DNA from: Anaerolineae bacterium
GTDB lineage: Bacteria; Chloroflexota; Anaerolineae; CG2-30-64-16
DNA: 64,000 bases
Reading direction: 5' to 3'
Assembly: GCA_040772005.1 (NCBI GenBank)
Contig: JAXGYZ010000002.1
Location: forward strand, 101,546-165,545
The notes below the pieces were generated by a model. The model saw nothing but the letters and a program-made list of their open reading frames with translations. It was not told the origin of the DNA and did not search any database. The position numbers were made by a program, and so were the translations under genes. This document shows positions 5,427-53,079 of this stretch, piece after piece (position 1 is the first letter of the stretch; each line of letters opens with the position of its first letter).

Positions 5427-5454
5427 AGTAACGAGTAATGAGTAACGAGTAAGT
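5427..5454. repeat. solo arm of the GAGTAAC heptamer palindrome family
   Basis: gagtaacgagtaatgagtaacgagtaag is identical to one arm of the long palindrome at 43464-43550; it is flanked by GATTGTG-type heptamers. Confidence 0.5.
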
Positions 5455-5475
5455 GCGGGAAATCCAAGTACAGGC

Positions 5476-5545
5476 GGAGTCGAGGCTTCAGCCGGTTGGG
5501 CTGGCTGTACACGCACACTCCCTAACCGGCTGAAGCCTCGACTCC
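5476..5545. repeat. perfect 22-bp-stem hairpin in the divergent tauE / radical-SAM intergenic region
   Basis: ggagtcgaggcttcagccggtt, a 26-nt loop, then aaccggctgaagcctcgactcc (exact reverse complement). Confidence 0.6.
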
Positions 5546-5608
5546 GATCCTGATGAAAGTGCTTCATTTGAACTTGCTGGGCCGACTGAGCAGCTGGCTG
5601 CCTGTGTT

Positions 5609-6754
5609 GTGAGTTCGGAGGCCCTCAATCTTCGGTCTGTGCGCTACATGCGTTATAATGGCCCCATGTCGATGCTTTCTCTTGCACCCAGGCTCCCCCT
5701 GTATTGGAGCTTTCGGCGCTTCGGTTGGCCGAAAATGTACCCCTTCTCCGTCGTCGTGAGCGTCAGCTTCCGCTGTAACTCCAAATGCCGCACCTGCGAT
5801 GTGTGGCGCAAGCCCAACGATGATATGTCAGTGGAGGAATGGGACAAGGTCTTTGCCAACCTGGGGCGCACGCCCTTCTATATCACTTTCACCGGCGGCG
5901 AGCCTTTCCTGCGTCGCGACCTGGACGAGATGGTCATCAGCGCGTACCGCCACTGCCGCCCGTCGGTCATCACGATTCCCACGAACGGCCTGTTGACCGA
6001 CCGCGTGGTCGAGCGCGTGCGGCGCATCTGCCGGGAATGCCCGGACAGCCAGATTGGTCTCAACCTGAGCCTCGACGGCATCGGGGAAGAACATGACGAC
6101 ATTCGCGGCGTGCCGGGCAACTGGGAACGCTCGATGGCGACGTGGAATGCGCTGAAGGAGCTGCAGAAAACGCAGCGCAATCTGATCCTGACCGTCCACA
6201 CGGTCGTCAGCCGGTTCAATCAGCACCGCTTTCAGGAAATTTATCACAACTTGCAGTTTCTTCAGCCGGACAGCTACATCACCGAAGTGGCCGAAGAGCG
6301 CGTGGAGCTGGATACCATCGGCTGGGGCATCACGCCGGAGCCGGATGCCTATGCACCCATTGCCGATTTCCTGAGCGCGCAGGCGCGAGCCCAGCCGGCC
6401 AAAGGGCTGGCGCGCATCACGCAGGCGTTCCGCGCGCAGTATTACCAGCTAGCCAAGCGGGTGCTCTACGAACGCACCCAGGTCATTGACTGTTATGCGG
6501 GCTGGGCCAGCGCACACATTGCGCCCAACGGCGACATCTGGAGCTGTTGCATCCGCGCCGAGCCGGTCGGCAGCCTGCGCGAGACGGGCTACGACCTCGC
6601 GCCCATCTGGTTCGGGGAACGCATGGCTGCGCTGCGCAAGTCCATCTACGACAAGGAATGTGCCTGCCCCATGGCGAACGCCAGCTATGCCAACATGCTG
6701 CTGCATCCGCCGACCGTGGCGAAGGTCGGGCTGGAAGTGTTGAAGCGGGATTGA
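5609..6754 (+). CDS. radical SAM enzyme with a C-terminal Cys-rich (SPASM/twitch-like) region
   Basis: CNSKCRTC = CX3CX2C radical-SAM cluster motif, a glycine-rich SAM site (FTGGEPFL) and C-terminal CC...CxC cysteines. The true start may be an internal ATG (5648 or 5666). Confidence 0.6.
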
Positions 6755-6759
6755 GCGCG

Positions 6760-7188: not shown

Positions 7189-7189
7189 A

Positions 7190-10219: not shown

Positions 10220-10579
10220 ATGGCGAAACAGACGGAGAACATCGGAGCGCGGGCAGGTGTGTTGAGCGAACTCGTGCGCAACGGCAAATTGGCGTGGAAG
10301 TTGTTCAAGGACCCGCGCGTCGCCTGGGCCTATAAGCTGATTATCCCGGGGATTGCCGGGTTGTATCTGTTTTTCCCGGCGGACCTGCTGCCGGACTTTT
10401 TCCCGCTGCTCGGTCAGTTGGACGACCTGGCAATCATTGCGTTGGCGGTCAAGTTGTTCATTGAGTTGGCGCCGAAGGACATCGTGAGTCAGTACCGCGA
10501 CGGCCAGCGCGCGGCTGGCTCCGCCGCCGGCGCCGACCAGGGGCATGTCGTGGATGGCGAGTATCGGGTCATGGACTGA
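10220..10579 (+). CDS. DUF1232 (YkvA-like) small membrane protein
   Basis: 119-aa ORF with the DUF1232 core (DPRVAWAYKLIIPGIAGLYLFFPADLLPDFFPLLGQLDDLAIIALAV). Confidence 0.6.
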   Translation: MAKQTENIGARAGVLSELVRNGKLAWKLFKDPRVAWAYKLIIPGIAGLYLFFPADLLPDFFPLLGQLDDLAIIALAVKLFIELAPKDIVSQYRDGQRAAGSAAGADQGHVVDGEYRVMD

Positions 10580-10580
10580 G

Positions 10581-10650
10581 GGAATTAGGAATTAGAAATT
10601 AGGAATTAAGAGTTGGGCATTCCCAATTTTCAATTCGTAATTCGCAATTC
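10581..10650. repeat. AT-rich palindrome of tandem GAATTAG-type heptamers (bidirectional terminator candidate); right arm overlaps the last codons of rimO
   Basis: ggaattaggaattagaaattaggaattaag / gaattgcgaattacgaattgaaaatt (reverse complement) form a long imperfect hairpin between the convergent DUF1232 and rimO genes. The right arm encodes the rimO C-terminus ELRITN. Confidence 0.55.
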
Positions 10651-12039
10651 ACCGAGCAGGTCGTACTCCAGCGCGCCGGAGATGCGCACCTGGGCCATCT
10701 GGCCGACGGGCAGCAGGCCCGGCACAACCACCAGCCCATCCACCTCCGGCGCATCGCGGTAGCTGCGCGCCAGCGACACCGGCTGGCGTCGCGCCCGCGC
10801 CTTCGCATGTCGCCCGCGCTTCTCAGCCACGACCAGCCCCGGCTGCGCGGCCATCTCCATCTCGCCCTGCGCCTCCACCAGCACTTCCAGTTGCCTGCCG
10901 ACCTGGGCCTGGTTGCGGATCAGCGAGATGCGCTGTTGGGCGGCCATCAATCGTGCATACCGCTCGCCCTTAACTTCCTCCGCCACCTGGTCCGGCATGT
11001 CGGCCGCGGGCGTGCCCGGCTCCGGGCTGAAGGTAAACACACCGACCTTGTCGAACTGGATGGCCTCCACAAAGTCGAGCAGGCCCTGGAACTCCGCTTC
11101 CGTCTCGCCGGGGAAACCCACGATGAACGTGCTGCGGAAGGCCATGTCGGGCATGGCCGCGCGCATCTGCGCGAACGTCGCGAGGAGCCGGTCCACGTTG
11201 CTGGGCCGGAACATGCGGCGCAGCGTGGCCGGATGGCCGTGTTGCAGCGGGATGTCCAGGTAATGACAGATGCGCGGGTCGCTCGCCATGACGTCGATCA
11301 GGCGCTGCGTGACGTGGCCCGGATACGCATACATGAGCCGCAGCCAGCGCACATCCGGCGCGCCGTGGAGGATGTCCCGGAGCAGGCCGGGCAGCGTGTC
11401 GGGCTGGCCCGCGTCGCGACCGTAATCCGTGGTGTCCTGTGCAATGAGGATCAGCTCGTGTGCGCCCGCGGCGGTCAGGTTGCGGGCCTCGGCGACGATG
11501 GCCTCCGGCGGGCGGCTGCGCAGCTTGCCCTTGAAGACCGGGATGGAGCAGAACGCGCAGGGTGCGTTGCAGCCGTCGCTGACCTTGAGATACGCGCTGC
11601 CGTTGACCACCGGCGGCCGCGGAGTCGCGTCGAGGAGCGGCTGTTCCGGGTCACCCAGCAGCGCGTAGCTGCCGAACGCGCGCTGCGCCTTGCCTCCCCG
11701 GAGCGCCTGGATGAACGGCACAATCTCCATCCAGCGCCGCGTGCCCAGCAGCCCGTCAACGCCCGGCACTTCCTGGGCGATGCGCGCGCCGTTGCGCTGG
11801 GCCATGCAGCCCGCGGCAATGAGCACCTGGCCCGGCCGCTTGCGGCCGGCGAGCTCGCGCAGGTTGGCGAGGGACTCGTCTTCGGCTGCGGCCAGGAAGC
11901 CGCACGTATTAACGATCAGGACATCGGCGTCGGTGGGCACGTTGGTGCCGTCATACCCTGCCCCGCCGAGCAGCATCGCCATGCCTTCGCTGTCAACCGT
12001 GTTCTTGGGACAGCCGAGCGTCATCAGGAAGTATCTCAT
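10630..12039 (-). CDS. rimO: ribosomal protein S12 methylthiotransferase RimO (radical-SAM MTTase with TRAM domain)
   Basis: MRYFLMTLGCPKNTVDSE N-terminal MTTase domain, a radical-SAM CxxxCxxC core (SDGCNAPCAFCSIP) and a C-terminal TRAM domain; 469 aa. Confidence 0.75.
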   Translation of the reverse strand: MRYFLMTLGCPKNTVDSEGMAMLLGGAGYDGTNVPTDADVLIVNTCGFLAAAEDESLANLRELAGRKRPGQVLIAAGCMAQRNGARIAQEVPGVDGLLGTRRWMEIVPFIQALRGGKAQRAFGSYALLGDPEQPLLDATPRPPVVNGSAYLKVSDGCNAPCAFCSIPVFKGKLRSRPPEAIVAEARNLTAAGAHELILIAQDTTDYGRDAGQPDTLPGLLRDILHGAPDVRWLRLMYAYPGHVTQRLIDVMASDPRICHYLDIPLQHGHPATLRRMFRPSNVDRLLATFAQMRAAMPDMAFRSTFIVGFPGETEAEFQGLLDFVEAIQFDKVGVFTFSPEPGTPAADMPDQVAEEVKGERYARLMAAQQRISLIRNQAQVGRQLEVLVEAQGEMEMAAQPGLVVAEKRGRHAKARARRQPVSLARSYRDAPEVDGLVVVPGLLPVGQMAQVRISGALEYDLLGELRITN

Positions 12040-12043
12040 AAGC

Positions 12044-12172
12044 TCTTTAAACCAACGGTTGCAGGTTGCATGTTACAGGTTCGCCGATCGCGTTTGGCTG
12101 ATCGCAATCGTATGTTAGCCTGTAGCCGACAACCTGCAACCTGTAACTTGTAAACCTTTAAACCTGTAACCG
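12044..12172. repeat. palindrome built from tandem GGTTGCA/GGTTACA heptamers
   Basis: Left arm ctttaaaccaacggttgcaggttgcatgttacaggtt and right arm aacctgcaacctgtaacttgtaaacctttaaacctgtaaccg are reverse complements. Located between the rimO start and the rodZ-like stop. Confidence 0.55.
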
Positions 12173-12173
12173 T

Positions 12174-13109
12174 TTAGCCGGCTGGCGTCGGCGTAACGGT
12201 GGTCTGGGGCGTGTCGGTCTGGCCGGAGGTCTCGGTGACGCCTTCCGGGTTGACGACCCAGGTGCGCTCGACGACCTGTCCCACGTTGCCCATGGTGCCC
12301 AGGTCTTCGCCGTTCAGGATGAGCGTGACCCCGCCGCCGTTGCCTGTGCGGATGGTAATCGAGTCCGCGGCCTCATAGACGCGCGAGGCGTTTGCATCGA
12401 GCGTGCCTTCCTCCGCGACCTCTCCGTCCACCAGGATACGCATCCATGCGCGCTGCGTAGTCACGACCTCTAACAAGAGCGCCGATACAAATTCAGGGGT
12501 GGCGGTCGGGCGCAGTGTCGGCGTCGCAGAAGCCTGCACTGTGGGCGTCGGCAGCGGCAGCAGGTCCGAGGTCGGCTCAGGCAGAGGCGCGGTCGGCGTC
12601 TCGGAGGGCTTCGGCGTGGCAGTGACAACCCACTGGGTCGCGGTGTTGGTGGGCGTGGCGCTGGCCGCGGGGCCAAACGCCGCCAGCGGATTCCAGCCCG
12701 GATTACGGTTCAACAGCCACCAGCCGCCCAGCGCTAGAAGCAAGACGAAGGCCAACGCAGCCACCCAGGGCAGCCAGCGTGACCCGGCCATCGGGTCCAC
12801 CAGCTCGACTTCCAGGGGCCGGTAATCAATCAGGCGCGGCTTGCCTGGCTCCGCGATCGCAATCTCCGGGTTGGTATCCCCGCTCTCTATGCTGTAGAGA
12901 TCGAGAACGCCCTCGACGTCCAGGCCGAGATACGCGGCATAGGTGCGCACGAACCCGCGCGCGACTGTGCCGCGCGGCAGGCTGGCATAATCACCATTTT
13001 CCAGGGCTTCGAGATATCTCTGGCGGATGCGCGTGACCGCTTCAACGTCGGCCAGGCTGAGTTGTTTCGCCGTGCGCGCCTCGTACAAAAGGCGCCCGAG
13101 CTCACTCAT
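12174..13109 (-). CDS. rodZ: RodZ-like cytoskeleton protein (XRE-type HTH, TM helix, Pro/Thr-rich linker, C-terminal DUF4115)
   Basis: Start at ATG 13109 (MSELGRLLYEARTAKQLSLADVEAVTRIR is an HTH_XRE motif), one TM segment, PT-rich linker, conserved C-terminal domain. Confidence 0.55.
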   Translation of the reverse strand: MSELGRLLYEARTAKQLSLADVEAVTRIRQRYLEALENGDYASLPRGTVARGFVRTYAAYLGLDVEGVLDLYSIESGDTNPEIAIAEPGKPRLIDYRPLEVELVDPMAGSRWLPWVAALAFVLLLALGGWWLLNRNPGWNPLAAFGPAASATPTNTATQWVVTATPKPSETPTAPLPEPTSDLLPLPTPTVQASATPTLRPTATPEFVSALLLEVVTTQRAWMRILVDGEVAEEGTLDANASRVYEAADSITIRTGNGGGVTLILNGEDLGTMGNVGQVVERTWVVNPEGVTETSGQTDTPQTTVTPTPAG

Positions 13110-13203
13110 ACGATGTTGTGTCCTGATACGTGATAGTAGACAGAACAAATATACCCGCGGCGGGGCGAAAAGTCAAAAACTATGCTTATCCGGCCCCCAT
13201 CTC

Positions 13204-23033: not shown

Positions 23034-23648
23034 CTATTCGTGTCCGTTATAGGCCATAGCCGGCTGCCAGACTTCCCAGACCTTGCCGACGAGCTTGGGG
23101 CCCGGGGTCAGGGTGGTCCCGCCCGGCTGCCAGCCCGAGGGCATGACTTCGCCGGTGGCGCGGGTGTGCTGGAAGGCCTTGACCTGCCGGATCAGCTCGG
23201 ATACGCTGCGGCCAACGCTCGGCGTCAGCACCTCCATCCCCTGGATGATGCCATCCGGGTCGATGATGAAGCGCCCGCGGATGTCGACGCCTGCATCCTC
23301 GTCATAGACGCCATAGGCCTGTCCGATCTTGCCGCCGCCATCGGACAGCATCGGGAACGGAATACCTTCGGGCGTCATCTTCGCGAGTTCTTCTTCGTGC
23401 CAGATCTTGTGTACGAAGCGGCTATCGGTGCTCAACGAGAGGACTTGGACGTCGAGGGCCTGGAGTTCGGGGTATTTGACGGCAACTGCCGACAACTCAG
23501 TCGGTCAGACAAACGTGAAGTCGCCGGGGTAAAAGCAGACGACTACCCAATGGCCCTTGTAGTCCGACAGTTTGACATTCTGGAATCCGCCCTTGAAATA
23601 GGCCGCGGCCTCGAAATCCGGGGCGGGTTTACCGACACGTGCAAGCAT
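23034..23648 (-). CDS. 2-Cys peroxiredoxin (AhpC/Prx1 family) with selenocysteine at the peroxidatic position
   Basis: Two adjacent tool ORFs (23505-23765 and 23034-23495) are one gene split by an in-frame TGA at 23505-23507. The joined sequence reads GDFTFV-U-PTEL, the universal Prx motif FTFVCPTE with Cys replaced by UGA. The resolving-Cys region and the rest of the thioredoxin fold follow. Start taken at ATG 23648 ([14 protein letters not shown]). Confidence 0.65.
23481..23504 (-). promoter_or_regulatory. SECIS-like hairpin immediately 3' of the peroxiredoxin UGA
   Basis: UGA-CCGACUGAGUUGUCGG-CAGUUGCC: stem CCGAC/GUCGG with a 6-nt loop right after the UGA, plus a second small stem GGCAGUUGCC. 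Confidence 0.4.
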
Positions 23649-23919
23649 TTTGGGCGCCTCCTGTGTGGGGGTGACTGGCGCGGCCGTGGGAGCACTCTCG
23701 CTTGAGATGATCCCCTTTGCCGGCTTGACGCACGAGTCCTTCGGTTCGACCTGTGGTGTGGTCACTCATGGCCTCCTTTCGTGCGATGCGATAGAACCAC
23801 TGGTGACAGAATACACGAAAGTCGACAGTGTTACTATGATATCGCGCAGGTAATCGCAAACCGTTCGCAGCAGCAGGGATCGCCCGATAAATCGTTGTAG
23901 GCGCGGAAAGCCCGCGCCT

Positions 23920-33022: not shown

Positions 33023-33025
33023 GAC

Positions 33026-33118: not shown

Positions 33119-33123
33119 CAACG

Positions 33124-34602: not shown

Positions 34603-34603
34603 C

Positions 34604-35500
34604 TTAGTTCTCCCCGGATGCAGCCAGTTCGCGCGCTGCAACATCCAGATTGCACTCACTGCCGTCCGCGTGCTCATGGTGCTGCCAGTGCTCGACGGCG
34701 AGCTGTTCTTCGGCCTTGTAGAACTGGATGCGTGAGAGCAGGTTGTTCCAGTCCACCTTATGGCCGTCGAACTCCGGGCCGTCCACGCAGACGAATTTCG
34801 CGCCGTCGGTCATCGCGACGCGGCAGCCGCCGCACATGCCCGTGCCGTCGATCATAATCGTGTTCAGGCTGACGATGGTCGGTACGTCGAACGGCGCGGT
34901 GGTGGCCGAGACAAACTTCATCATGATCGTCGGCCCAATGGCCCACACCTTCTTGACCTCATCGCCGCGCACTGTAAGAATCTCCTTGAGCGGCTCGGTG
35001 ACGAGCGCCTTGCGGCCATAGGACCCGTCGTCGGTGCAGACGATCAGCTCATCCGAGACGGCCCGCATCTTGTCTTCCCAGAACAGCAAGCTCTGGTTGC
35101 GCGCACCCATGATGGTGATAACGTGATTGCCGGCGGCCTTCAGGTCCCGTGCAATGGGATACATAGGCGCGATGCCGACGCCGCCCGCCACGCAGATGAT
35201 GGTTCCATAGGGTTCGATTTCAGTCGGGTGGCCGAGCGGCCCCGCGACCGAATAGAACCCATCACCGACGTTGAGCTCGCCCATCTGCTGCGTGGACTTG
35301 CCGACTTCCTGGAAGATGAGCGTGATCGTCCCGACCGCGCGGTCATGGTCGGCGATGGTCAGCGGGATGCGCTCGCCCTGCTCATCCACGATGACGATCA
35401 CGAATTGGCCGGCGCGCGCCTTGCGTGCCACGTGCGGGGCCTCCACGACCATCAGCTTCGTGACATCGCTGAGCACCTGTTTTTCGAGGATCTTGTACAT
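34604..35500 (-). CDS. nfnA: NfnA-like ferredoxin-NADP reductase subunit (PyrK/SudB-type FAD and 2Fe-2S protein)
   Basis: ATG with GAGAGG ribosome-binding site (MYKILEKQVL). FAD-binding barrel and the C-terminal 2Fe-2S cysteines (MCGGCRV ... C). Confidence 0.65.
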   Translation of the reverse strand: MYKILEKQVLSDVTKLMVVEAPHVARKARAGQFVIVIVDEQGERIPLTIADHDRAVGTITLIFQEVGKSTQQMGELNVGDGFYSVAGPLGHPTEIEPYGTIICVAGGVGIAPMYPIARDLKAAGNHVITIMGARNQSLLFWEDKMRAVSDELIVCTDDGSYGRKALVTEPLKEILTVRGDEVKKVWAIGPTIMMKFVSATTAPFDVPTIVSLNTIMIDGTGMCGGCRVAMTDGAKFVCVDGPEFDGHKVDWNNLLSRIQFYKAEEQLAVEHWQHHEHADGSECNLDVAARELAASGEN

Positions 35501-35632: not shown

Positions 35633-36043
35633 CTAACTGGCTTGTACAAAACCGGCCATTTGGAAATGCCTGTCGAATGTGAAGGCATCCGTGATTTCAC
35701 GCTGGCGCATGACTGCAAAGCTCATGGCATCTGCCAGGCTCAATTCCTGGTCTTTGAACTGGCGCAGGATTCTCGCTGCGAGCAGGTCGCTGTCGGGATC
35801 GGCATAAATCATCTGTAGACGATGGGTCTGACGGATGGATTCCAGAAACCGGATGGCGGGGTCAAAGCCGCTGACACGCCGGATGGCAATATGCGCCTCT
35901 GCGATGACCAGATTCGTGGTTACCAGTTCCCACCGTTCGCTCACCAACCGTTTGTAGATCGGTGTCGCAACCGAGTGAAACTGATCTCGCTGGCTGACCA
36001 CCGCAATCCAGGCGCTCGCGTCTACGAAGACTTCTCGCGCCAT
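35633..36043 (-). CDS. vapC: PIN-domain ribonuclease toxin VapC
   Basis: VFVDASAWIA (first PIN acidic residue) ... LVTTNLVIAEA ... TDAFTFDRHF (PIN catalytic D/E residues); 136 aa. Confidence 0.75.
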   Translation of the reverse strand: MAREVFVDASAWIAVVSQRDQFHSVATPIYKRLVSERWELVTTNLVIAEAHIAIRRVSGFDPAIRFLESIRQTHRLQMIYADPDSDLLAARILRQFKDQELSLADAMSFAVMRQREITDAFTFDRHFQMAGFVQAS

Positions 36044-36300
36044 TCCCTGCTTTCCTCTCGGATAGCTTGCACGATGTACTCGTCGTGTTTCTCGGCCAGG
36101 TCAGGGGGCGCGTTCTCCACAATGCCGATGATATTCCAAAGGGGGTCTTCCTCCAGCGGCACTTCGCTCAGGATATGATTGACGCCCTGGCGAATCAACT
36201 CGCCCATCGAGACCCCGCGCCGCTCCGCCAGCGCGCGCAGCGCGCGCAGTTGCTCTGGCTCCAGGTAGACCTGAATCGGCTTTTTATTGATAACCACCAT
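36022..36300 (-). CDS. vapB: ribbon-helix-helix antitoxin VapB (CopG/Arc family)
   Basis: 92-aa ORF overlapping the vapC start by 22 nt. RHH motif (IQVYLEPEQLRALRALAERRGVSMGELIRQG); GGAGG ribosome-binding site. Confidence 0.65.
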   Translation of the reverse strand: MVVINKKPIQVYLEPEQLRALRALAERRGVSMGELIRQGVNHILSEVPLEEDPLWNIIGIVENAPPDLAEKHDEYIVQAIREESREWREKSS

Positions 36301-36380
36301 GGTATTAACCTCCGGTGATATAGGTCATTCTACATCACTTTTGGGTGTCTTGCAAAGGTGGTCCGGCGACTGAAGGCACG

Positions 36381-36447
36381 GGCCACCGAGTTGCGTAGCA
36401 ACCCGGTGGCCACAACCTTCAACCTGTAACCTTTAGACCTGCAAACG
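36381..36447. repeat. 8-bp-stem hairpin plus a solo arm of the GGTTRCA heptamer palindrome family
   Basis: ggccaccg-agttgcgtagcaacc-cggtggcc followed by aaccttcaacctgtaacctttagacctgcaaacg, which resembles the right arms at 12131-12172 and 53041-53079. Confidence 0.4.
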
Positions 36448-41035: not shown

Positions 41036-41079
41036 GAGTGTAGTATAAAAGCTACAGATTGTAAAGTCGCGACGATCAA

Positions 41080-41139
41080 CCGCGGAAGACACGGAGCACA
41101 CAGAATGATAATTTTCCGCGTGCTCCGTGTCTTCCGCGG
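41080..41139. terminator. 20-bp perfect palindrome with an AT-rich loop 3' of acsB (terminator candidate; related to 53980-54049)
   Basis: ccgcggaagacacggagcac, a 20-nt loop (acagaatgataattttccgc), then gtgctccgtgtcttccgcgg. The right arm and loop resemble the palindrome at 53980-54049 (ttccgcgtg.tccg.gt; gatgat.ttt). Confidence 0.5.
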
Positions 41140-41148
41140 TTCACATCG

Positions 41149-43437
41149 TTAGAACATCGGCTCCATCATCAGCGACGGGTGGCCGGTCGCTTCGAGGTGC
41201 GCGAGCAGGCCGTCCACGTCGGTGCAGATGGTCTCATCGGCAATCTTGCTCAACAGGTCGGGGTCGCCCTCGCGCTCGCACACGGCCTGGAGTTCCGCGG
41301 CCATCGTCTGCTTGAGCACGCTGGACATCCACACGACGCGGCTGAAGCCGCCGTCTGCGGAGATGAACTTCGGGCTGGTCAGGTAGTACTTGCCGACGCC
41401 CATTACGCCTGGCGTCTGCAACCCGCCGCCGGCCATGCCGGCCAGGGTCGAAAACGTCATGCCCGCGGGCGTCATGCTCGTGTCCTCGCGGGAGACGACC
41501 ATCACGCCGTTCGCCTCCGGGATGAGCATGACGATGCACTCGAAGCAGCCGCACGCAGTCATGGGTGCGTTCATGATCGAGTACATCGCGACTTCCTGCA
41601 CCGTGCCGTTCGACTTCTGCTGTGCGATTTCGTTCAGGCCCGCGTAGATACCCTTCTCGCGGTCGATCATCATGCCCTTACGGATGGGCTGATTCGGGCC
41701 GGTCGGGTTAATCTGGTAGGAGGCCGCGCAGTCCAGGTAGTTGTATGCGCCGCACAGGCCGAGACGCTGCGGGCTGACCAGGCACAGGTGGGTCGGCGCA
41801 AACGACTGGCAGAGCGTGCAGGTGTAGAACTCCTCCACTGACTCGTCGGTCATATCCGCGAGGCGGTTGTTGCGATAATCGTAGGCATCACGGGCCTTTT
41901 GCAGCCATGTGGCGTGCAGCGTCGGGTCCGTGATGATTTTGACCTGCACCTTGTCCACGATAGCGCCGAAGTCGGCCATCAGGCGGGCATGCACGATGTC
42001 ACCGAAGTGCTTGAGCGAGAACCCCTTGTCCGCCGCGGCCTTGCTGATGCGAATCCAGGTGATATCGCGCTGGCCGATGTGCTGGATGCCGCTCGCGCCG
42101 TTGACGAAGTAGTGAATCTGGCGTTCGAGCACCGGCTCGAAGTCCCGCTGCATCTTGCGGCCCGCAACCTCGACCAGGATGCCCATGTCCATCGAGCCTG
42201 CTTCCGGCACGTCTGCGAAGTCCGGCCCGATGACCTCAATCTTGCCGTCCTCCACCTGGTCCATGTCGACCATGCGCAGATATTCGAAGGCCCGGCTGTA
42301 CTTGCCGCCGAATTCGACGCGCATGTCCTTCTTGCGGACGACCTCACCCTCGAACGCGGAGCCGTAGGGCACCGGGATCGGGACCTCGGTCAGCTTGATC
42401 TTGACGCCGCGCGTCTCGATGCACTTCTGGACCAGCTTCTCTGCGCGTTCCAGGTCATCCTTGCCTTCGATTTCGTTGAAGGGCATGGAGATGACGTGCT
42501 CATAGGTCGTCACGCCGGTGGGCAGGATCTGGGGGATGCGCGTGTCTGCGATGACCGGAAAGCCGTAGTTGATGGCGCCCGCGGCTGCCGCGTACTTCAG
42601 GTCGTCGACCTCGCCCAGCGCCAGCACAAACGCAAAGACGCGCTGCCGGTTGTATTGCAGGATGTCCTTCGCCTGCCCGCCCTTCATGCCGCCGAAGGTC
42701 AGCGCGGAACGGGTCGCGAACCCGATGGGATAGATGGCGGAGAGTGTGTCCAGGCCAAACGGCACGATGTAGGTGTCGTAGCCCATCTCCACGCCCTCTT
42801 CCTGCAACTGGTGGATGACCGAGCGGCCGTTGACGTTGCCGCAGAGGAAGATCAGGATGTTGCGTTTCTGCAGCTCACGCACGATCTTGACCGCGACCTC
42901 GTTGCTCTTGGCGCAGCCGACAATCGCGGCGAAGCCGGGCATACGCCCGTCGACCAACTGGATGCCCCAGGCGCGGAGCTGAACGTCGTCGATCGGACCG
43001 TTCAACCGTCCGTTGCCGTCAGAGCCGCCGGAGGTCCCGCCATCCGGGCTGGTGAAGCTGCCGCCGGTCCCGTGGAAGCCTTCCAGGCGACCCGGTTCCT
43101 CGCCATAGACGAAGCGGATGGCCTCGATGATCTCCGCGGCCAGCAGCGTGGACATGCCGGAGTCCAGCGTCTCGCCGAGGTAGGGTGTCCAGCACTGGAC
43201 CGTCGGGACGGGATGCAGCAACTCCTTTGCATGCTCCAGCACCGGCGTCAGCTCGCCCAGCTTGGTGATCTCGCGACCGGTCATGCCGAAGATGGTCGGC
43301 AGGTAGTAAGCAGTATTGGGGAAGGCGACAGGGCAGTCAGCGCCCTTCTCCTGCAAGGCTTTGCTGAGGAGCTCGTCGGCCTCTTGCACAATCAGGTTGG
43401 CGCCGCGGATGGCGCGAGTAGCGATGTATCGCGACAT
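41149..43437 (-). CDS. acsB: acetyl-CoA synthase catalytic subunit AcsB (CODH/ACS beta; A-cluster)
   Basis: 762 aa with near-diagnostic ACS segments: AFPNTAYYLPTI, IEVIGPDF, FYTCTLCQSFAPTHLCLVSPQRLGLCGA, MTACGCFECIVMLIPEANGVMVV (A-cluster Cys-Gly-Cys), MTFSTLAGMAGGGLQTPG. Confidence 0.85.
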   Translation of the reverse strand: MSRYIATRAIRGANLIVQEADELLSKALQEKGADCPVAFPNTAYYLPTIFGMTGREITKLGELTPVLEHAKELLHPVPTVQCWTPYLGETLDSGMSTLLAAEIIEAIRFVYGEEPGRLEGFHGTGGSFTSPDGGTSGGSDGNGRLNGPIDDVQLRAWGIQLVDGRMPGFAAIVGCAKSNEVAVKIVRELQKRNILIFLCGNVNGRSVIHQLQEEGVEMGYDTYIVPFGLDTLSAIYPIGFATRSALTFGGMKGGQAKDILQYNRQRVFAFVLALGEVDDLKYAAAAGAINYGFPVIADTRIPQILPTGVTTYEHVISMPFNEIEGKDDLERAEKLVQKCIETRGVKIKLTEVPIPVPYGSAFEGEVVRKKDMRVEFGGKYSRAFEYLRMVDMDQVEDGKIEVIGPDFADVPEAGSMDMGILVEVAGRKMQRDFEPVLERQIHYFVNGASGIQHIGQRDITWIRISKAAADKGFSLKHFGDIVHARLMADFGAIVDKVQVKIITDPTLHATWLQKARDAYDYRNNRLADMTDESVEEFYTCTLCQSFAPTHLCLVSPQRLGLCGAYNYLDCAASYQINPTGPNQPIRKGMMIDREKGIYAGLNEIAQQKSNGTVQEVAMYSIMNAPMTACGCFECIVMLIPEANGVMVVSREDTSMTPAGMTFSTLAGMAGGGLQTPGVMGVGKYYLTSPKFISADGGFSRVVWMSSVLKQTMAAELQAVCEREGDPDLLSKIADETICTDVDGLLAHLEATGHPSLMMEPMF

Positions 43438-43463
43438 GGTTAGTTCCTCCGTGAACCGGAATG

Positions 43464-43550
43464 AGAGACGAGTAACGAGTAACGAGTAAGGAGAAATGAG
43501 TAAGCGTCACTTCTTACTCGTTACTCATTACTCGTTACTGATTTCTCATC
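43464..43550. repeat. long palindrome of tandem GAGTAAC heptamers between acsB and cooS
   Basis: gagagacgagtaacgagtaacgagtaaggagaaatgagtaag, loop cgtcac, then ttcttactcgttactcattactcgttactgatttctcatc. The right arm reaches the cooS stop codon. Confidence 0.6.
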
Positions 43551-45540
43551 ACCCGTAAATCTCTGCCATCTGCTCTTCGACCGGCAGTTCGCTGTATGAC
43601 TCCATCGCCGCATCCCCGGATGCGCCAAAGCGGGCCGGATCGTAGGCAGGCAGCTTCAGCGCCGCGCGCTTCTTGTCGATGTGCTCGAGTGTCTTCTGGA
43701 CGATGTCTCCGGCCTCGATAACGAACTCCAGCTTGCCGCCGTAGCGGTCTTCCCACTCACTTAACAGGATGTCGGAAACCGCATCGGAGAACTCAACCGG
43801 GTTGCGCACGCCCATGATGACGTACGCGCCAGAGCCGACACAGTAAGTGGCGATGGATAAAGCTTTCTCGCTCATCCATTCGGGTGCCAGGCCGACCGCC
43901 GGGATATCGCTGATGTCGTCGCCCAGGCCGCCCTCGGTCGCCATCTGGCTCAACACAGTGAGGATGCGGCTGTTATCCACGCAGGAACCGAGGTGCAGGA
44001 CCGGCGGGATGCCGATCGCTTCGCAGACCTCGCGCAGGCCGGGGCCGACCTTTTCCGGATCGAGGCCCGCAGAGCCCTTCATATAGCCATACTTGCCGGC
44101 TGCAATCGCGCCGCACCCCGTGCTCACCACCAGAACATCATTCTTCAGCAGTTCGGTGACCACATCCATGTGGACCTGGTCGTGGGTGAAGGCGGGGTTG
44201 TTGCAACCGACATTCGCCGCCACGCCGCGGATGCGCCCGCTGGCGATGGCGTCGTTGAGCGGCCGGAAGGAGGCCCGATAGTTGCCGCCCTGCATGTAGG
44301 CCAGATACTCATGGCTGAAGCCCGGCACCATTTGTTCGGACATGCCATGGGGGATGTGCGTCTCGGCGGCCCGGTTGGCATAGTTGTCGATTGCGCGGCG
44401 CACGATATTCTTGGCGATGTCCATCGCGTGATGCTCGTCGAACTCGATGTGTGTGGCGCCGGTAATCTTGACTTTGGGGCTGGTGGTGATGATTTCGGTG
44501 TGGAAGTGCTCGGCAACGCCCACCAGGGATTGCATGATGCACTGCACATCCACCACCATTGCCTCGACCGCGCCGGTCAGGATGGCGAGTTCCTGCGTCA
44601 GGAAGTTGCCGGCGGAAGGAATGCCCTGGCGCATCATGACCTCATTGGCCGTGCAGCAGATGCCCGCCAGGTTGATGCCGTCCGCGCCCTTGCTCTTGGC
44701 ATACTCGATCAGATCGGGGTCCTGAACGGCCGTGACGATCATCTCAGAGAGCGTGGGTTCGTGGCCGTGGACGATGATGTTGACCTGCTTCTCTTCCAGG
44801 CAGCCGAGATTGACTCCGCCAACCTTCGGGCTGGGGGTGCCGAAGAGGATGTCGGAGATGTCGGTGGCCCACATCGAGCCGCCCCAGCCGTCGGATAGGG
44901 CCGTGCGCACAGCGGCGCTCAAGATGTGGCTGGCATCCTGGTCGTCGCCAATGTGCGTGCGATGCAAGATCTCCACCACTTCGCGGTCGATGCCCCGCGG
45001 CACCACACCCTGGTCGCGCCAGAGCTTCTGGCGCTTGGGCGGTGCGGTATTGATGTAACTGAGCGTCCCGCGCTGTTGCCCGAATTCGCTGATGGCTTTG
45101 TTGGCCACGTCCAGCGCGACCTCTATGACAGTCTTGCCTTTCGTGGGGATGCCATGTTTGGCCGCGACGGCATACAGCTTGGCCTCATCGCGAATCTGGT
45201 AACCCTGGGCCTCGCCGGTCGCCACTGCATGGAGGGTAAACGCCAGGTCACGGCCATGGTCGGAGTGAGCCGCCGCGCCAGCCGCAATCGCCCGCGCCAG
45301 ATTGCGGGCCGCGATGGTTTCCAGCGTCGCACCGCAGATGCCGACTTGCCCTTCTTTGGTGATGCGGCAGGGCCCCATATAGCAATTTTTGCAGCAGACG
45401 CCCGATTGCCCGCTGCCCACGGTGCAGGGCTTATGGTCTGCCGCCCGGCTAAATGAGGTCGAGATGCCCATCAGTTCGGCAACGTCCAGCACGTAGCATG
45501 CGGCTGGATCGATGCTGGGCGTGATTTTCTGTTTTGCCAT
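43549..45540 (-). CDS. cooS: anaerobic carbon-monoxide dehydrogenase catalytic subunit CooS/AcsA (Ni-Fe C-cluster)
   Basis: Start ATG 45540 with GAGGAG ribosome-binding site (MAKQKITPSIDPA). D/B-cluster N-terminal cysteines (CTVGSGQSGVCCKNCYMGPCRI), C-cluster ligands (HGHEP; GICCTANE; GCNNP; HLGSCVDN); 663 aa. Confidence 0.8.
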   Translation of the reverse strand: MAKQKITPSIDPAACYVLDVAELMGISTSFSRAADHKPCTVGSGQSGVCCKNCYMGPCRITKEGQVGICGATLETIAARNLARAIAAGAAAHSDHGRDLAFTLHAVATGEAQGYQIRDEAKLYAVAAKHGIPTKGKTVIEVALDVANKAISEFGQQRGTLSYINTAPPKRQKLWRDQGVVPRGIDREVVEILHRTHIGDDQDASHILSAAVRTALSDGWGGSMWATDISDILFGTPSPKVGGVNLGCLEEKQVNIIVHGHEPTLSEMIVTAVQDPDLIEYAKSKGADGINLAGICCTANEVMMRQGIPSAGNFLTQELAILTGAVEAMVVDVQCIMQSLVGVAEHFHTEIITTSPKVKITGATHIEFDEHHAMDIAKNIVRRAIDNYANRAAETHIPHGMSEQMVPGFSHEYLAYMQGGNYRASFRPLNDAIASGRIRGVAANVGCNNPAFTHDQVHMDVVTELLKNDVLVVSTGCGAIAAGKYGYMKGSAGLDPEKVGPGLREVCEAIGIPPVLHLGSCVDNSRILTVLSQMATEGGLGDDISDIPAVGLAPEWMSEKALSIATYCVGSGAYVIMGVRNPVEFSDAVSDILLSEWEDRYGGKLEFVIEAGDIVQKTLEHIDKKRAALKLPAYDPARFGASGDAAMESYSELPVEEQMAEIYG

Positions 45541-45554
45541 GAGATGTATCTCCT

Positions 45555-45881
45555 CTACTTCTTGGCATCCCGCAGGTCGGTGCGGGTCTGGCGTAGGCCG
45601 AGGCGATCCCATGCGGGATCTTTGCGGCCATCCTGTACGGGAACGGGTTGCGTCATGACGCTCGCGCCGTCGGTGGCAACGGGGTAGCCGGCCTCATCCA
45701 GCATGGCCATAATGGCGCCCGGCGTGACCAGCGCCGGGTCGTAAGATACGATGACCATGCGGAAGGCGGAGCTGGCAAGAACATCCTGCACACCGGTCAA
45801 CTGCGACAGGGCTTCCCGCACCTTCAGCGTGTGATGATCGGCCCAGAGATTGGGCACGCCGAACTGGATTTTCTCCATGGG
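45555..45881 (-). CDS. conserved hypothetical small protein co-operonic with cooS
   Basis: 108-aa ORF with a GAAGGAGG ribosome-binding site 10 nt upstream of ATG 45881; it ends 14 nt before the cooS start. No recognisable motif. Confidence 0.4.
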   Translation of the reverse strand, partial: PMEKIQFGVPNLWADHHTLKVREALSQLTGVQDVLASSAFRMVIVSYDPALVTPGAIMAMLDEAGYPVATDGASVMTQPVPVQDGRKDPAWDRLGLRQTRTDLRDAKK

Positions 45882-50314: not shown

Positions 50315-50977
50315 ATGAAGGCCCCTAACCGCGTGGCGCCGTGGCTGGGCTATATTGGGCTTTCGCTTGTCTGGCTGATCATCCTGGCTGCGGTTGTCTC
50401 GCTGGGCCGCAGACCGGCAACGAAGCCGATCGAGATCCTGCCACCTCCCACACTGACACTCACCCCCGTTCCGTCACCCACGCCGACCCCCGGCCTGCTG
50501 CACGTCGATGTGGCCGGCGCAGTGCGGCGTCCGGCTGTCTATCAACTCGCGCCGGGCAGCCTGGTTGCCGATGCGATTGCGGCTGCGGGCGGGCCCGCTG
50601 AGGACGCGGACCTGGACCGCATCAATAAGGCCGTGCCCCTGGATGACCATATGCAGGTCTATGTGCCGCGGCGCGCCGCTCCCGGTGCAACCGTCGCGCC
50701 GGGCGGTGCAGAGGAACCCCCGCCTGTCTCGACCGCGCCGCTCCGCATGATGGGCGGCGTCGCCTCCCCTGCCACACCCTCCGCCGATTCACCTGGGCTG
50801 ATCAACCTGAACACTGCATCGCTGGCCGAGCTGGACAGCCTGCCGGGCATCGGTGAGGTCACCGCGCAGAAGATTGTGGCCGGCCGGCCCTATGCCAGCG
50901 TCGAGGACCTGCTGCGCGTGGACGGCATCGGGGAGGCCAAGCTCGCCACGCTGCGCCCCCTGGTCACGGTGGAATAA
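50315..50977 (+). CDS. comEA: ComEA-family DNA-binding competence protein (SLBB domain plus tandem helix-hairpin-helix)
   Basis: N-terminal TM segment, SLBB region (LLHVDVAGAVRRPAVYQLAPGSLVADAIAAAGG) and a C-terminal HhH pair (LINLNTASLAELDSLPGIGEVTAQKIV ... VDGIGEAKLATL). Confidence 0.65.
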   Translation: MKAPNRVAPWLGYIGLSLVWLIILAAVVSLGRRPATKPIEILPPPTLTLTPVPSPTPTPGLLHVDVAGAVRRPAVYQLAPGSLVADAIAAAGGPAEDADLDRINKAVPLDDHMQVYVPRRAAPGATVAPGGAEEPPPVSTAPLRMMGGVASPATPSADSPGLINLNTASLAELDSLPGIGEVTAQKIVAGRPYASVEDLLRVDGIGEAKLATLRPLVTVE

Positions 50978-51024
50978 ACGACGGTCCTTCACCGGAGGAT
51001 GTGTCCTGCTCTCCGGACACCGGG

Positions 51025-51165
51025 CATCCTGAGCGGAGGCCCGCCATAGGCGGGGCGCAGTCGAAGGGTGCGGCCATTTTGCGACCGCTCCGCCCCTTCG
51101 ACTACGTGCGTTGCTGTGCCAGGCGTAGCCTGGCCCTAACGCCCTCCGCTCAGGGTGCTCCGCTC
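51025..51165 (+). ncRNA. candidate structured RNA element, copy Y (homologous to 13228-13330), in the 5' leader of the ABC-transporter substrate-binding-protein gene
   Basis: Shares with copy X the P1 strands (GGGCAUCCUGAGCGGAGG ... CCCUCCGCUCAGGGUGC) and the GCAGUCGAAGG ... CCUUCGACUACG helix, while the enclosed hairpins differ in sequence (CCCGCC-AUA-GGCGGGG; GCCAGGC-GUA-GCCUGGC). Confidence 0.4.
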
Positions 51166-51264
51166 GTTTCTGCCCAGGTGAAGATTCGCTCCCGCCGAAA
51201 TCCCTTTTGACGATGACCGTTAACGGCGGTACAATTCACCTGCGAAACGAACAGGAGGTGAAGC

Positions 51265-52971
51265 ATGAGAAAAGGTCTGCCATTCGTTGCTTTGCTGGTT
51301 CTGGTCAGCCTGGTCATGTCCGCGTGTATGCCGTTGGCGCCGGTGCCGACGCCGGTGGCTGCCGAACCGACGCCGGTCGCGGAGCCGACCGTAGCTGCGG
51401 AGCCGACCATCGCGGCGGAGCCGGCGCCAGCGGCGGAACCCACCGCAGCCGCCGAACCTGCCGCGCCGGAACCTGAGGCGCCTGTGGACGCGGCCAAGAC
51501 GCTGCGCCTGCCGGATCTCGGCGGCCAGGCCGTGCGGGCGGTGACGGAGAATGCGTATCCGCCGTTGAACTTTGTGGACCCGGTGACGGGGGAAGCGGTG
51601 GGGTGGGAATACGAGGCGGTGAACGAGATCTGCCGGCGGCTGAACTGTGCGGTGGCGTGGAGCACGGTGTCGTGGGACGCCATGATCCAGGCGGTGCAGG
51701 ACGGGCAGTTCGACGTGGGGATGGACGGCATCACGATCACGGCGGAGCGGGCGACGCAGGTGGCCTTCTCGGCGCCGTACCTGGTGTCGCAGCAGTACAT
51801 GCTGGTGCGGGCGGACGAGACGCGCTTCACGGATGCGGCGACGTTTGCGGCGGACGAGGGGCTGCTGATCGGGTCGCAGGCGGGGACGACGAACTTCTAC
51901 GTGGCCGTGTACGAGGTGCTGGACGGGGACGAGCAGAACCCGCGCATCAAGCTGTTCGAGACGTTCGGGGCGGCGGTGCAGGCGCTCTTGGCGGGGGATG
52001 TGGACCTGGTGCTGATGGATGCGGCGTCGTCGCGCGGCTACATCGGGGCCAACCCGGACCGGCTCAAGCTCGTCGGTGAGCCGCTCGGCACGGAGGAGTT
52101 CGGCTTCATCTTCACCCCCGGTTCCGCGTTGGTGGAACCCTTCAATGCGGCCCTCGCGCAGATGCGCGCAGACGGCTATCTCGACTACCTGAACAACAAA
52201 TGGTTCTTCCTGACCGACCCGAACGCCCAGGACCAGTATGACCAGTTGCCCGACTTGCAGGGTCAGCCGGTGCGGGCGGTGACGGAGAATGCGTATCCGC
52301 CGTTGAACTTTGTGGACCCGGTGACGGGGGAAGCGGTGGGGTGGGAATACGAGGCGGTGAACGAGATCTGCCGGCGGCTGAACTGTGCGGTGGCGTGGAG
52401 CACGGTGTCGTGGGACGCCATGATCCAGGCGGTGCAGGACGGGCAGTTCGACGTGGGGATGGACGGCATCACGATCACGGCGGAGCGGGCGACGCAGGTG
52501 GCCTTCTCGACGCCGTACCTGGTGTCGCAGCAGTACATGCTGGTGCGGGCGGACGAGACGCGCTTCACGGATGCGGCGACGTTTGCGGCGGACGAGGGGC
52601 TGCTGATCGGGTCGCAGGCGGGGACGACGAACTTCTACGTGGCCGTGTACGAGGTGCTGGACGGGGACGAGCAGAACCCGCGCATCAAGCTGTTCGAGAC
52701 GTTCGGGGCGGCGGTGCAGGCGCTCTTGGCGGGGGATGTGGACCTGGTGCTGATGGATGCGGCGTCGTCGCGCGGCTACATCGGGGCCAACCCGGACCGG
52801 CTCAAGCTCGTCGGTGAGCCGCTCGGCACGGAGGAGTTCGGCTTCATCTTCACCCCGAACTCGCCCCTGGTCGAGCCTTTCAACGCGGCCTTGGCGACGA
52901 TGAAGGCCGATGGGTTCATCGACCACCTGAACACGCGCTGGTTCTTCATGTACGATCCGGCCGCGGAATAG
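51265..52971 (+). CDS. polar-amino-acid ABC transporter substrate-binding lipoprotein with an internal tandem duplication giving two type-3 SBP domains
   Basis: Lipobox (LVMSAC) and an (AEPTxA)n low-complexity linker. Two consecutive roughly 246-aa SBP_bac_3 domains whose core nucleotide sequences (51532-52118 and 52270-52856) are identical except for one substitution (Ala/Thr in FSxPYLV). Confidence 0.7.
51532..52856 (+). repeat. 738-bp-period direct tandem duplication inside the SBP gene (587-bp cores more than 99.8% identical)
   Basis: 51532-52118 matches 52270-52856 base for base apart from one substitution; the flanking roughly 150 bp of each copy are clearly diverged. Confidence 0.8.
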
Positions 52972-53079
52972 GTTGCAAGTTGGCGGGTTGCAGGTTGCAG
53001 GTTACGGGCCGCAGGACCTTGCACGATTCTGTGCTCTCATCCTGTAACTTGCAACTTGCAACGTCAGAACTTGTAACGG
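52971..53079. repeat. palindrome of tandem GGTTGCA/GGTTACA heptamers between the SBP and permease genes
   Basis: ggttgcaagttggcgggttgcaggttgcaggttacggg ... cctgtaacttgcaacttgcaacgtcagaacttgtaacgg (the arms are reverse complements with a few mismatches). Confidence 0.55.

Follow-up and report, generated by a model that had tools for sequence, protein, structure and literature searches.

Hairpins of tandem heptamers between the genes of Anaerolineae: stem-loops that persist at conserved junctions whilst their units turn over

What are the long palindromes that lie between the genes of an Anaerolineae bacterium, how are they made, and what might they do for the genes around them? The question is raised by a stretch of 64,000 nucleotides from the phylum Chloroflexota (assembly GCA_040772005.1, contig JAXGYZ010000002.1, positions 101,546 to 165,545), here called the window, in which an earlier note had listed seven sites with tandem units of seven nucleotides, most of them followed by the reverse complement of the same units, and had treated them as one family. 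The answer that we favour, with moderate confidence, is that DNA slippage and templated copying generate simple-repeat hairpins which serve, or are tolerated, as intercistronic mRNA stem-loops and which are not intrinsic terminators.

All seven sites are present, and Tandem Repeats Finder (TRF) detects arrays of period 7 at each of them (Table 1). At five sites a tandem heptamer array is followed by a reverse-complement array, the other two are solo arrays, and the members of the family are related in architecture and not in sequence. Folding, which the note had proposed as a check, was carried out on the RNA of each site and compared with 200 dinucleotide shuffles of it. The five paired sites form single long stem-loops of -20.8 to -56.0 kcal/mol (z -3.9 to -8.0), with none of the 200 shuffles as stable. 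The elements are also AT-richer than their surroundings, as had been claimed, with a GC content of 33-54% against ~65% for the window. Flanking genes were identified by Pfam, and the view that the sites lie inside operons holds for the rodZ-rimO, nfnB-like/RACo and cooS-acsB junctions and for that between a solute-binding protein (SBP) gene and a permease gene, but not for 10581-10650, which lies between convergent gene ends and there partly overlaps the last codons of rimO. Hairpin E fills the spacer between cooS and acsB, the cooS stop codon overlapping its first unit and the Shine-Dalgarno (SD) sequence, GGAGGA, coming after its 3' arm.

The pattern is not peculiar to the window, and it is due to neither chance nor faulty assembly. 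A search with the window AcsB in one-genome-per-species contigs provided 80 related loci with 75-96% protein identity, nearly all labelled as Anaerolineae, Anaerolineales or Chloroflexota metagenome-assembled genomes (MAGs). Together with the window these give 81 sequences (1.49 Mb), from which TRF arrays of 5-12-nt units were taken and counted as paired if a local alignment of the array's reverse complement within 130 nt reached a score of at least 24. There are 168 paired arrays in the real sequence and 1 in a Markov-1 shuffle of it, and on merging they make 106 hairpins in 47 of the 81 sequences, although, with every related locus centred on the acs operon, orthologous junctions enter the count repeatedly and the effective sample size falls short of these figures. 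The period is 7 in 65 of these hairpins, 8 in 24 and 9 in 10, the median total length is 72 nt with a median loop of 16 nt, and their GC content is 47% compared with 62% for the loci. Around 20 of the 106 were classed as coding, and by inspection nearly all of these are intergenic hairpins overrun by crude calls of open reading frames (ORFs), with 2-3 genuine GC-rich coding repeats amongst them. Stems are typically 6-bp helices, each set off from the next by one mismatch that falls where the seventh letter of the unit varies. An arm with more copies of its unit tends to have a partner with more copies (r = 0.44, p = 0.0015), the median difference between the two being 0.65 units. The window and its 29 closest loci together have 1.17 hairpins per 10 kb, the other sequences 0.42.

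Had the pattern been confined to the window, the family would have to be given up on the terms of the earlier note, but it extends well beyond even these loci. A pattern search found the GAGTAAY hairpin in at least 120 contigs of JGI metagenomes, with a GC content of 38-72% among the matches listed, and the contigs listed carry 43 further tandem-unit hairpins with other units, mostly of period 7. The same hairpin, in either arm order, has no match in 2.9 million viral contigs, and an NCBIfam search of the low-GC metagenome contigs returned housekeeping functions and no lineage signal. Heptamer hairpins are an abundant, lineage-wide feature that is common in a clade of Anaerolineae.

Comparison of orthologous sites, also proposed by the note, gives the most informative evidence. 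Across the 81 sequences the cooS-acsB spacer is bimodal, being either 9-35 nt with an SD only or 77-245 nt with a hairpin. The hairpin is found in 24 of the 29 closest relatives and is built from many different units, which are GAGTAAY in the window, L001 and L018 (L numbers denote individual loci), a decayed GAGGAAC in L002, GATTGMA in L004, L005 and L015, GCGTAYT in L008, GGGATTA in L010, ATTGGTAN in L011 and L017, GGTATTA in L013 and L016, GACGAAG in L014, CAGTAAT and CGGTAAT in L022, L023 and L026, and GATTTTA in L025. Five of six of these hairpins that were tested fold with z-scores of -5.4 to -9.3. Within the cooS-acsB spacer of L053 there is a run of N, either a masked stretch or an assembly gap, inside a GATTTAC-type heptamer hairpin.

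How one unit gives way to another can be followed in L002, which is collinear with the window over 31-54 kb at ~87-89% DNA identity. At site D, where the flanking DNA is ~88% identical, the window has GATTGAA paired with ..CAATC.. and L002 has GGTTGCA paired with ..CAACC.., and the L002 version also folds (z -6.0). Several units of one arm have changed from A to G, and several units of the other arm have the matching change from T to C, a pattern that, judged from the two aligned sequences, is concerted and compensatory evolution of both arms. At hairpin F the unit has been kept and the loop has diverged between the same two genomes, and at array G the window has ~2 units more than L002. A possible beginning of such an array is seen in L025, whose unit GATTTTA is the final 7 nt of cooS (GGATTTTAG). 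As L028 and L029 have the same end of cooS without a GATTTTA array, this suggests that the array was seeded locally by duplication of the end of the gene. Directly after the acsB stop codon there is a hairpin in most of the 81 sequences by inspection, either plain and GC-rich or made of tandem units; an ungapped stem detector, which under-calls gapped stems, flagged 28 of the 81. Tandem-unit hairpins thus seem to fill the place that ordinary stem-loops take behind a gene, and after acsB the two types seem to be interchangeable.

It is proposed that the arrays would arise and grow by replication slippage, whilst templated copying of DNA from arm to arm, through template switching or gene conversion, would produce the partner and maintain its complementarity. 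The slippage origin put forward in the earlier note fits, because units are gained and lost between close relatives and because a period that is not a multiple of three is dominant only in non-coding DNA, where 213 of 381 intergenic tandem arrays have period 7; arrays within genes have periods 6 and 9. Copying can be seen over a far greater distance than that between two arms. At solo array A, positions 5427-5453 (+ strand) are identical in 27 of 27 nt to one arm of hairpin E (43513-43539, - strand) 38 kb away, as the note had stated, and the order of the variant positions (C, T, C, G) is the same in both. No such match is expected by chance, and the 27-mer is absent from all 200 fetched loci, the closest relatives included, which points to a recent copy within the genome. 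An unusual variant stretch is likewise common to the right arm of hairpin C and array G, and unit types, allowing at most one mismatch, are shared in 16.7% of pairs within genomes compared with 5.3% between genomes (permutation p = 0.006). Within a genome, then, an arm can be copied to a site far from its own. In two related metagenome contigs the loops of orthologous GAGTAAC hairpins (L113 824-875 and L130 451-523) are reverse complements of each other and the unit numbers differ in both arms. An inverted loop is expected from recombination or template switching between arms, although with one clear case and one weak one among 83 orthologous hairpin pairs the observation is anecdotal.

The position of the hairpins relative to genes was taken from a simple caller based on GC at third codon positions (GC3), whose calls are crude. 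By junction there are 75 co-directional hairpins, 6 convergent and 3 divergent, set against a background of 77%, 11% and 12% of junctions, with divergent spacers making up 20% of the intergenic length. At co-directional junctions the 5' arm starts a median of 5 nt past the upstream stop codon, often overlapping it, and from the end of the 3' arm to the next start the median distance is 22 nt, which leaves room for little beyond an SD. A T-rich tract (at least 7 T in the 12 nt downstream of the stem) follows only 3 of the 75, and no U-tract is visible at any heptamer element of the window. That the units might be selected to close all three reading frames was also considered and was rejected, as units containing a stop codon (55%) are not significantly more frequent than after permutation of their letters (50%), and in the 3' arm they are slightly fewer (15% against 23%).

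An RNA role fits this arrangement best. Transcribed as part of a polycistronic mRNA, each element would fold into a stem-loop of ~20-35 bp behind the cistron that precedes it, at its 3' end, and could act there in the manner of the repetitive extragenic palindromes (REP) and bacterial interspersed mosaic elements (BIME), as a barrier to 3'-5' exonucleases or as a processing site. The elements would then set the relative stability and expression of neighbouring cistrons without intrinsic termination. The grounds for this are the position behind stop codons, the sites within operons such as cooS-acsB and SBP-permease, the lack of U-tracts and the apparent interchangeability after acsB. In E. coli operons it is established that REP elements, as stem-loops of the mRNA, hold up 3'-5' exonucleases or act as sites of processing, and the SBP-permease position of hairpin F parallels that of the malE-malF REP of E. 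coli. It is a speculation that a hairpin reaching from ~5 nt past the stop codon to ~10 nt before the SD could bring the stop and the next ribosome-binding site (RBS) together and so keep translation coupled across a 100-nt spacer. For the 7-bp hairpins between cyanobacterial hupS and hupL it has been proposed that they raise transcript stability or couple translation (PMC2670836).

Hairpins of this architecture have precedents in other bacteria. Those of filamentous cyanobacteria, made of short tandemly repeated repetitive (STRR) heptamers, are reportedly to be credited to Mazel et al. In having a 7-nt period, an inverted partner, an intergenic position close behind ORFs and variability at conserved junctions, the Anaerolineae elements are by their sequence architecture of the same STRR or heptameric simple sequence repeat (SSR) kind, and the novel miniature repeat class envisaged by the earlier note gives way to a likeness with hairpins already known from filamentous cyanobacteria (PMC2670836) and Xanthomonas (PMC4692102). 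STRR hairpins consist of 7-bp tandem units and lie between co-transcribed genes or near the 3' end of the preceding gene at many loci (PMC2670836). Tandem 7-nt units able to form a hairpin, the post-gene or intra-operon site and the many loci are all shared; the host here belongs to the Anaerolineae of the Chloroflexota and not to the cyanobacteria, and many unit types coexist, along with units of 8 and 9 nt. None of ten published heptamers, CCCCAGT, TTGGTCA, CAACAGT, GGGGAYT, TTTTGAA and GACYAAT included, occurs even twice in tandem in the window. Unlike STRR1-3, GGGAATC and GGGGAYT there is no genome-wide consensus heptamer here, with at least four heptamers and further 8-9-mers within 64 kb, a difference that concerns the sequence of the unit and not the architecture.

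The GGGAATC repeats of Xanthomonas campestris and X. axonopodis and the GGGGA(C/T)T repeats of Nostoc are the SSRs described by Rehm et al. 2015 (PMC4692102). These arrays typically have ~4 units and are ~90% intergenic. They follow the upstream ORF at an average distance of 28 nt, for the most part with co-directional genes on either side and less often than expected with divergent ones, and 70-75 convergent inverted pairs per genome are able to form stem-loops (PMC4692102). They occupy the same junctions in related species with variation of length and sequence (PMC4692102). The Anaerolineae hairpins are like them in being inverted pairs close behind ORFs, rare between divergent genes and variable at conserved junctions, and since the Xanthomonas pairs are described as convergent G-rich arrays (PMC4692102) the order of their arms is also the same. 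They differ in that one dominant G-tract unit per genome, studied as a former of G-quadruplexes (G4), is found in Xanthomonas and Nostoc, whereas the units of the window are diverse and mostly without runs of G. The functional role of heptamer repeats "still remains to be elucidated" according to Rehm et al., who gave no analysis of unit turnover across lineages and a brief note of arm orientation (PMC4692102). A further case is TAACTGA in a filamentous bacterium of the marine Beggiatoaceae, direct repeats of 2-6 intergenic units at ~170 sites, with related heptamers in cyanobacteria (MacGregor 2015, PMC4679880). These too are intergenic heptamer arrays, but they are direct, with one inverted set, and lie just upstream of start codons, whilst the Anaerolineae arrays are typically inverted pairs just downstream of stops.

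The functional analogy that we favour is with REP and BIME, as in both cases post-stop palindromes lie within operons. REP, BIME and REPIN (REP doublets forming hairpins) of enterobacteria and Pseudomonas are extragenic palindromes after stop codons, often within operons, that form structures in the mRNA and can shield the cistron upstream of them. Single REPs measure 20-40 nt and follow one consensus throughout a genome, carry a GTAG/CGTC tag and are linked to REP-associated tyrosine transposases (RAYT). The Anaerolineae elements are without a shared consensus, have an internal 7-nt periodicity and are 60-130 nt long, those of the window 70-129 nt, no GTAG/CGTC tag is consistently present within 8-10 nt of their ends, and among the 40 window proteins scanned against Pfam there is no RAYT or other transposase, so that the note was right to set them apart from classical REPs. 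It was equally right about CRISPR, which was rejected as the units are of 7-9 nt, contiguous and mirrored as reverse complements. Searches of Rfam gave 0 matches at gathering thresholds, with relaxed E-values bringing up only far-sub-threshold hairpins of eukaryotic miRNA precursors. A literature search whose coverage was incomplete, with the older STRR literature outside it, found no description of such elements in Chloroflexota and nothing relevant for the exact repeat sequences. Persistence with turnover of units, concerted change, copying of arms within a genome, the bias of orientation and the shared vocabulary of units, the last two of which are taken up below, appear not to have been described before.

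Several observations weigh against the account of slippage, templated copying and an intercistronic role in the mRNA, or at least go beyond it. The close relatives L003, L007 and L027 have no hairpin between cooS and acsB, which means that at this junction it is dispensable. The RNA role, whilst it fits best, is something that we infer, and the stems themselves carry no sign of it: there is no excess of G:U pairs, since transition mismatches compatible with G:U number 81 on the sense and 79 on the antisense strand, and sense and antisense folds are equally stable (mean -37.2 and -37.1 kcal/mol). Taken together these give no signature of selection on the transcript itself, and it looks as though complementarity is renewed by a strand-symmetric DNA process rather than by point-by-point selection on RNA, although an RNA function is still compatible with the missing G:U signal because stems of this length tolerate single mismatches. 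There is also a marked order of the arms. In the census G outnumbers C in the 5' arm of 88 hairpins, with the reverse in 17, and in an independent metagenome set the G-rich arm comes first in 33 and second in 7 among the contigs listed. Transcription or replication direction is not the cause, because a palindrome reads the same on both strands, and the asymmetry lies beyond what slippage and template switching alone predict. It is possible that it comes from avoiding transiently exposed C-rich, G-poor RNA of the kind that loads Rho just past the stop codon, or from keeping start codons that contain G and SD-like words off the arm next to the downstream RBS. Lastly, identical heptamers turn up in contigs that range from 38 to 72% GC, ~9 times as often as expected with composition matched: when the Anaerolineae set is compared with the other hairpins of the listed metagenome contigs, 0.99% of pairs are identical against 0.11% expected with letters permuted within units, examples being GATTGAA, GGAATTA, GACGAAG and ACGCAAY. 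Slippage and template switching do not predict this recurrence, and the shared vocabulary may be due to common descent, convergence or transfer.

These last features are open to a bolder interpretation, that heptamer hairpins are a widespread, self-renewing class of post-stop-codon element produced or selected by a conserved, directional and sequence-biased process. It draws on the G-rich arm coming first, on units (GAGTAAY, GATTGAA, GGAATTA, GACGAAG, ACGCAAY and ATTGGTAR) that recur across contigs of 38-72% GC and on the copying of arms within a genome, and we regard it as doubtful. If it were true, one mechanism would unite cyanobacterial STRR, the GGGAATC pairs of Xanthomonas and the Anaerolineae elements, and candidates would be a polymerase or a repair pathway able to write heptamer arrays in inverted pairs, or a selective rule against C-rich, G-poor RNA preceding its partner arm.

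The rival that deserves most attention is that the hairpins have no function, and are by-products of heptamer slippage and quasi-palindrome correction which gather in the unconstrained DNA between stop codon and RBS of a compact genome. The strand symmetry of the stems would be natural on such a reading, as would the presence of a hairpin in one close relative and its absence from another, the rapid turnover of units and loops, units in which stop codons are no commoner than their composition would give, and the frequency of solo arrays, which at the threshold used outnumber paired ones in intergenic DNA by 225 to 156. It does less well with the same junctions being reoccupied across divergent lineages, as between cooS and acsB and after acsB, with depletion from divergent spacers (3 of 84 elements against ~20% of the intergenic length), and with the 88:17 asymmetry of orientation, which requires selection or a directional mechanism. 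We consider absence of function possible, if somewhat unlikely. Termination or attenuation of transcription, perhaps by a hairpin alone without a U-tract, had been raised by the earlier note and looks improbable. The elements do stand directly after stop codons, two of those in the window (10581-10650 and 53980-54049) lie between convergent gene ends, and the plain GC-rich hairpins after acsB in relatives are also without a U-tract, which makes hairpin-only termination conceivable in the lineage. As Rho-independent terminators they were nevertheless rejected, with the T-rich tract so rare and stems that are long and AT-rich where short GC-rich ones would be expected; convergent junctions are not enriched (6 of 84 elements against ~11% of junctions), and many hairpins separate genes for subunits or partners of one complex, such as cooS-acsB and SBP-permease, where full termination would be harmful.

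That the hairpins are miniature non-autonomous mobile elements, either miniature inverted-repeat transposable elements (MITE) or of a REPIN-like sort, and are mobilised in trans by a transposase whose gene lies elsewhere in the genome, would account for the exact 27-nt copy of an arm at a second site and its absence from relatives, for unit types shared within a genome and for the odd variant motif that hairpin C and array G have in common, and a genuine dispersed repeat, ~120 nt long and built round a 9-mer palindrome, is present in the window in 3 copies. Yet beyond their arrays the heptamer hairpins have no sequence in common, and neither conserved flanks nor target-site duplications could be seen, for which reasons a MITE was rejected for them; the occupied spacer of L004 and the empty one of L003 differ throughout, and orthologous sites change their units gradually and in concert without being replaced by one family. 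With the tag inconsistent, no transposase found within the scope of the 64-kb window and no match in the viral contigs, mobility seems to us quite unlikely. Action at the level of DNA, as arrays for protein binding (iterons), G4, i-motif or cruciform, is very unlikely. It is consistent with stems that are symmetric on both strands and with a limited heptamer vocabulary recurring across contigs, GGGAATC-type repeats of Xanthomonas and Nostoc form G4 in vitro (PMC4692102), and a protein partner has been speculated for the heptamer repeats of Nostoc (bioRxiv 10.1101/2022.06.06.494920); against it stand the many unrelated units per genome, which do not suit one sequence-specific binder, the lack of G-runs in most units, so that G4 is not general, and the rarity of hairpins in the divergent spacers that contain promoters. 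Repeats of this sort can trouble assemblers, and the run of N in L053 is a case in point, but an artefact of assembly or sequencing can for practical purposes be set aside, refuted by the recurrence of this architecture at orthologous sites in dozens of assemblies that were produced independently and by different assemblers, by its presence in the metagenome contigs and by the intact reading frames on either side.

Apart from the sites of the earlier note, the window has six hairpins of the same construction with units of 8-9 nt (Table 1).

Table 1. Tandem-unit hairpins and solo arrays of the window, with TRF arrays, flanking genes and RNA folds (positions are those of the window)
Element	Position	Strand	Units and arms	TRF arrays	Flanking genes	Fold (segment; kcal/mol; z)
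Hairpin E, cooS-acsB	43463-43550	-	GAGTAAC-type, ~5-6 units per arm, 8-nt loop	GAGTAAC-type x5 at 43463-43504; TTACTCG x3.7 at 43514-43547	cooS 43549-45612; acsB 41149-43437	43455-43555; -48.0; -8.0
Hairpin D, nfnB-like-RACo	33026-33118	-	GATTGAA units and complement	GATTGAA x5.1 at 33032-33067; AATCTTC x3.7 at 33087-33112	nfnB-like gene 33124-34677; RACo 30995-33022	33023-33123; -34.1; -5.6
Hairpin F, SBP-permease	52970-53079	+	GGTTGCA units, ~40-nt loop	AGGTTGC x4.7 at 52970-53003; AACTTGC at 53046-53062	SBP gene 51265-52971; permease gene 53081-53956	52968-53082; -56.0; -6.7
Hairpin C, rodZ-rimO	12044-12172	-	GGTTGCA/GGTTACA units; small GC-rich inner hairpin in loop	GGTTGCA x3.6 at 12057-12081, pairing with AACCTGT x5.6 at 12131-12171	rodZ 12174-13148; rimO 10630-12039	12040-12175; -45.8; -4.3
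Hairpin B, DUF1232 gene/rimO convergent ends	10581-10650	.	GGAATTA x4 pairing imperfectly with xxxAATT units	GGAATTA x4 at 10581-10608; degenerate xxxAATT at 10619-10650	DUF1232 gene 10220-10579 (+); rimO (-)	10575-10655; -20.8; -3.9
Solo array A, divergent TauE/radical-SAM spacer	5426-5452	.		GAGTAAC x3.9		
Solo/partial array G, after cdhD stop (36453)	36413-36447	-	~4 GGTTRMA-type units (read on -)			
Hairpin after acsB stop	41078-41141	-	8-9-nt units CCGCGGAAG / ACACGGAG / CACGCGGAA; 28-nt arms, 26/28 complementary		acsB	-57.7; -11.4
Hairpin between convergent genes	53980-54049	.	ACGCGGA-type 9-nt units; perfect 28-bp stem		permease gene (+); AI-2E transporter/HAD gene 54054-55895 (-)	-60.1; -13.1
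Hairpin after ADH-like gene	28433-28509	-	GCGCAAAG-type 8-9-nt units		ADH-like gene 28536-29567	-33.8; -3.4
9-mer palindrome copy 1, after MTHFR gene	23957-24010	.	GACAGGATT x3 / AATCCTGTC x3		MTHFR gene 24085-25482	-36.3; -8.9
9-mer palindrome copy 2, downstream of tRNA(U5)-methyltransferase-like gene	60491-60544	.			tRNA(U5)-methyltransferase-like gene 60607-61860	
9-mer palindrome copy 3	61912-61965	.	inverted relative to copy 2		between PPDK-like (62005-63990) and methyltransferase genes	

The hairpin after acsB, which has orthologues in L001, L002 and L018, and the one between the convergent permease and AI-2E transporter/HAD genes are related in sequence (..ACGCGGAA / TTCCGCGT..), and both are without a U-tract. 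The 9-mer palindrome is the core of the dispersed repeat of ~120 nt, whose copies lie at 23932-24048 (+), 60466-60583 (+) and 61872-61988 (-) and align at ~95% identity over the shared stretch. Two of them, mutually inverted, flank the tRNA(U5)-methyltransferase-like gene, with no transposase nearby, and the sequence of the repeat suggests either a MITE or a 3'/5' regulatory module that the sites share.

The two solo arrays have neighbours of their own. Array A is without an inverted partner (best partner score 10) and without a fold (z +0.6 and +1.4), and adjoining it in the same divergent spacer is a non-periodic hairpin (5475-5546) with 26-nt arms that are 96% complementary; a BrnA-like antitoxin gene lies at 4114-4404. 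Array G has a partner of only 6 nt and abuts a separate GC-rich hairpin (36371-36421), and directly downstream of it, inside the acs gene cluster, is a pair of genes for a PIN-domain toxin and an RHH antitoxin (35633-36300, - strand). Very long solo or near-solo arrays occur in the related loci, TGCGTAC x9, GTAGGGA x11 and TAATCTC x10 (L008 302-363; L027 740-817 and 13443-13515), and in L185 an array of TTGGTAAG covers ~320 nt (1037-1360), from which it follows that expansion far beyond the usual 4-6 units is possible.

Two further observations concern other genes of the window. The spacer between rpsO (59232-59510) and pnp (56666-58900) is filled by an imperfect hairpin (58934-59057) with 41-nt arms that are 78% complementary and an inner hairpin with 24-nt arms, a position that resembles the RNase III-processed pnp leader of E. 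coli. An AhpC/TSA peroxiredoxin gene (23034-23765, - strand) has a single in-frame TGA (23505-23507) exactly at the peroxidatic cysteine (DFTFV*PTE), with a small hairpin (CCGAC..GTCGG) directly after it, and this split gene is probably a selenocysteine-containing peroxiredoxin rather than a pseudogene.

With the Anaerolineae a third, unrelated lineage is added to those with heptamer hairpins, which have been known in bacteria for decades, and the many related genomes form a series for comparison, along which a single junction can be traced in time. A hairpin that is kept, units that turn over, arms that change together and an order of arms that is biased are testable constraints on any model of origin or function. 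In practical terms the elements mislead the calling of start codons and can break or be masked in assemblies, as in L053. For the organisms themselves, the elements may set the ratios at which subunits are expressed in the Wood-Ljungdahl (cooS/acsB) and other operons of uncultured Chloroflexota.

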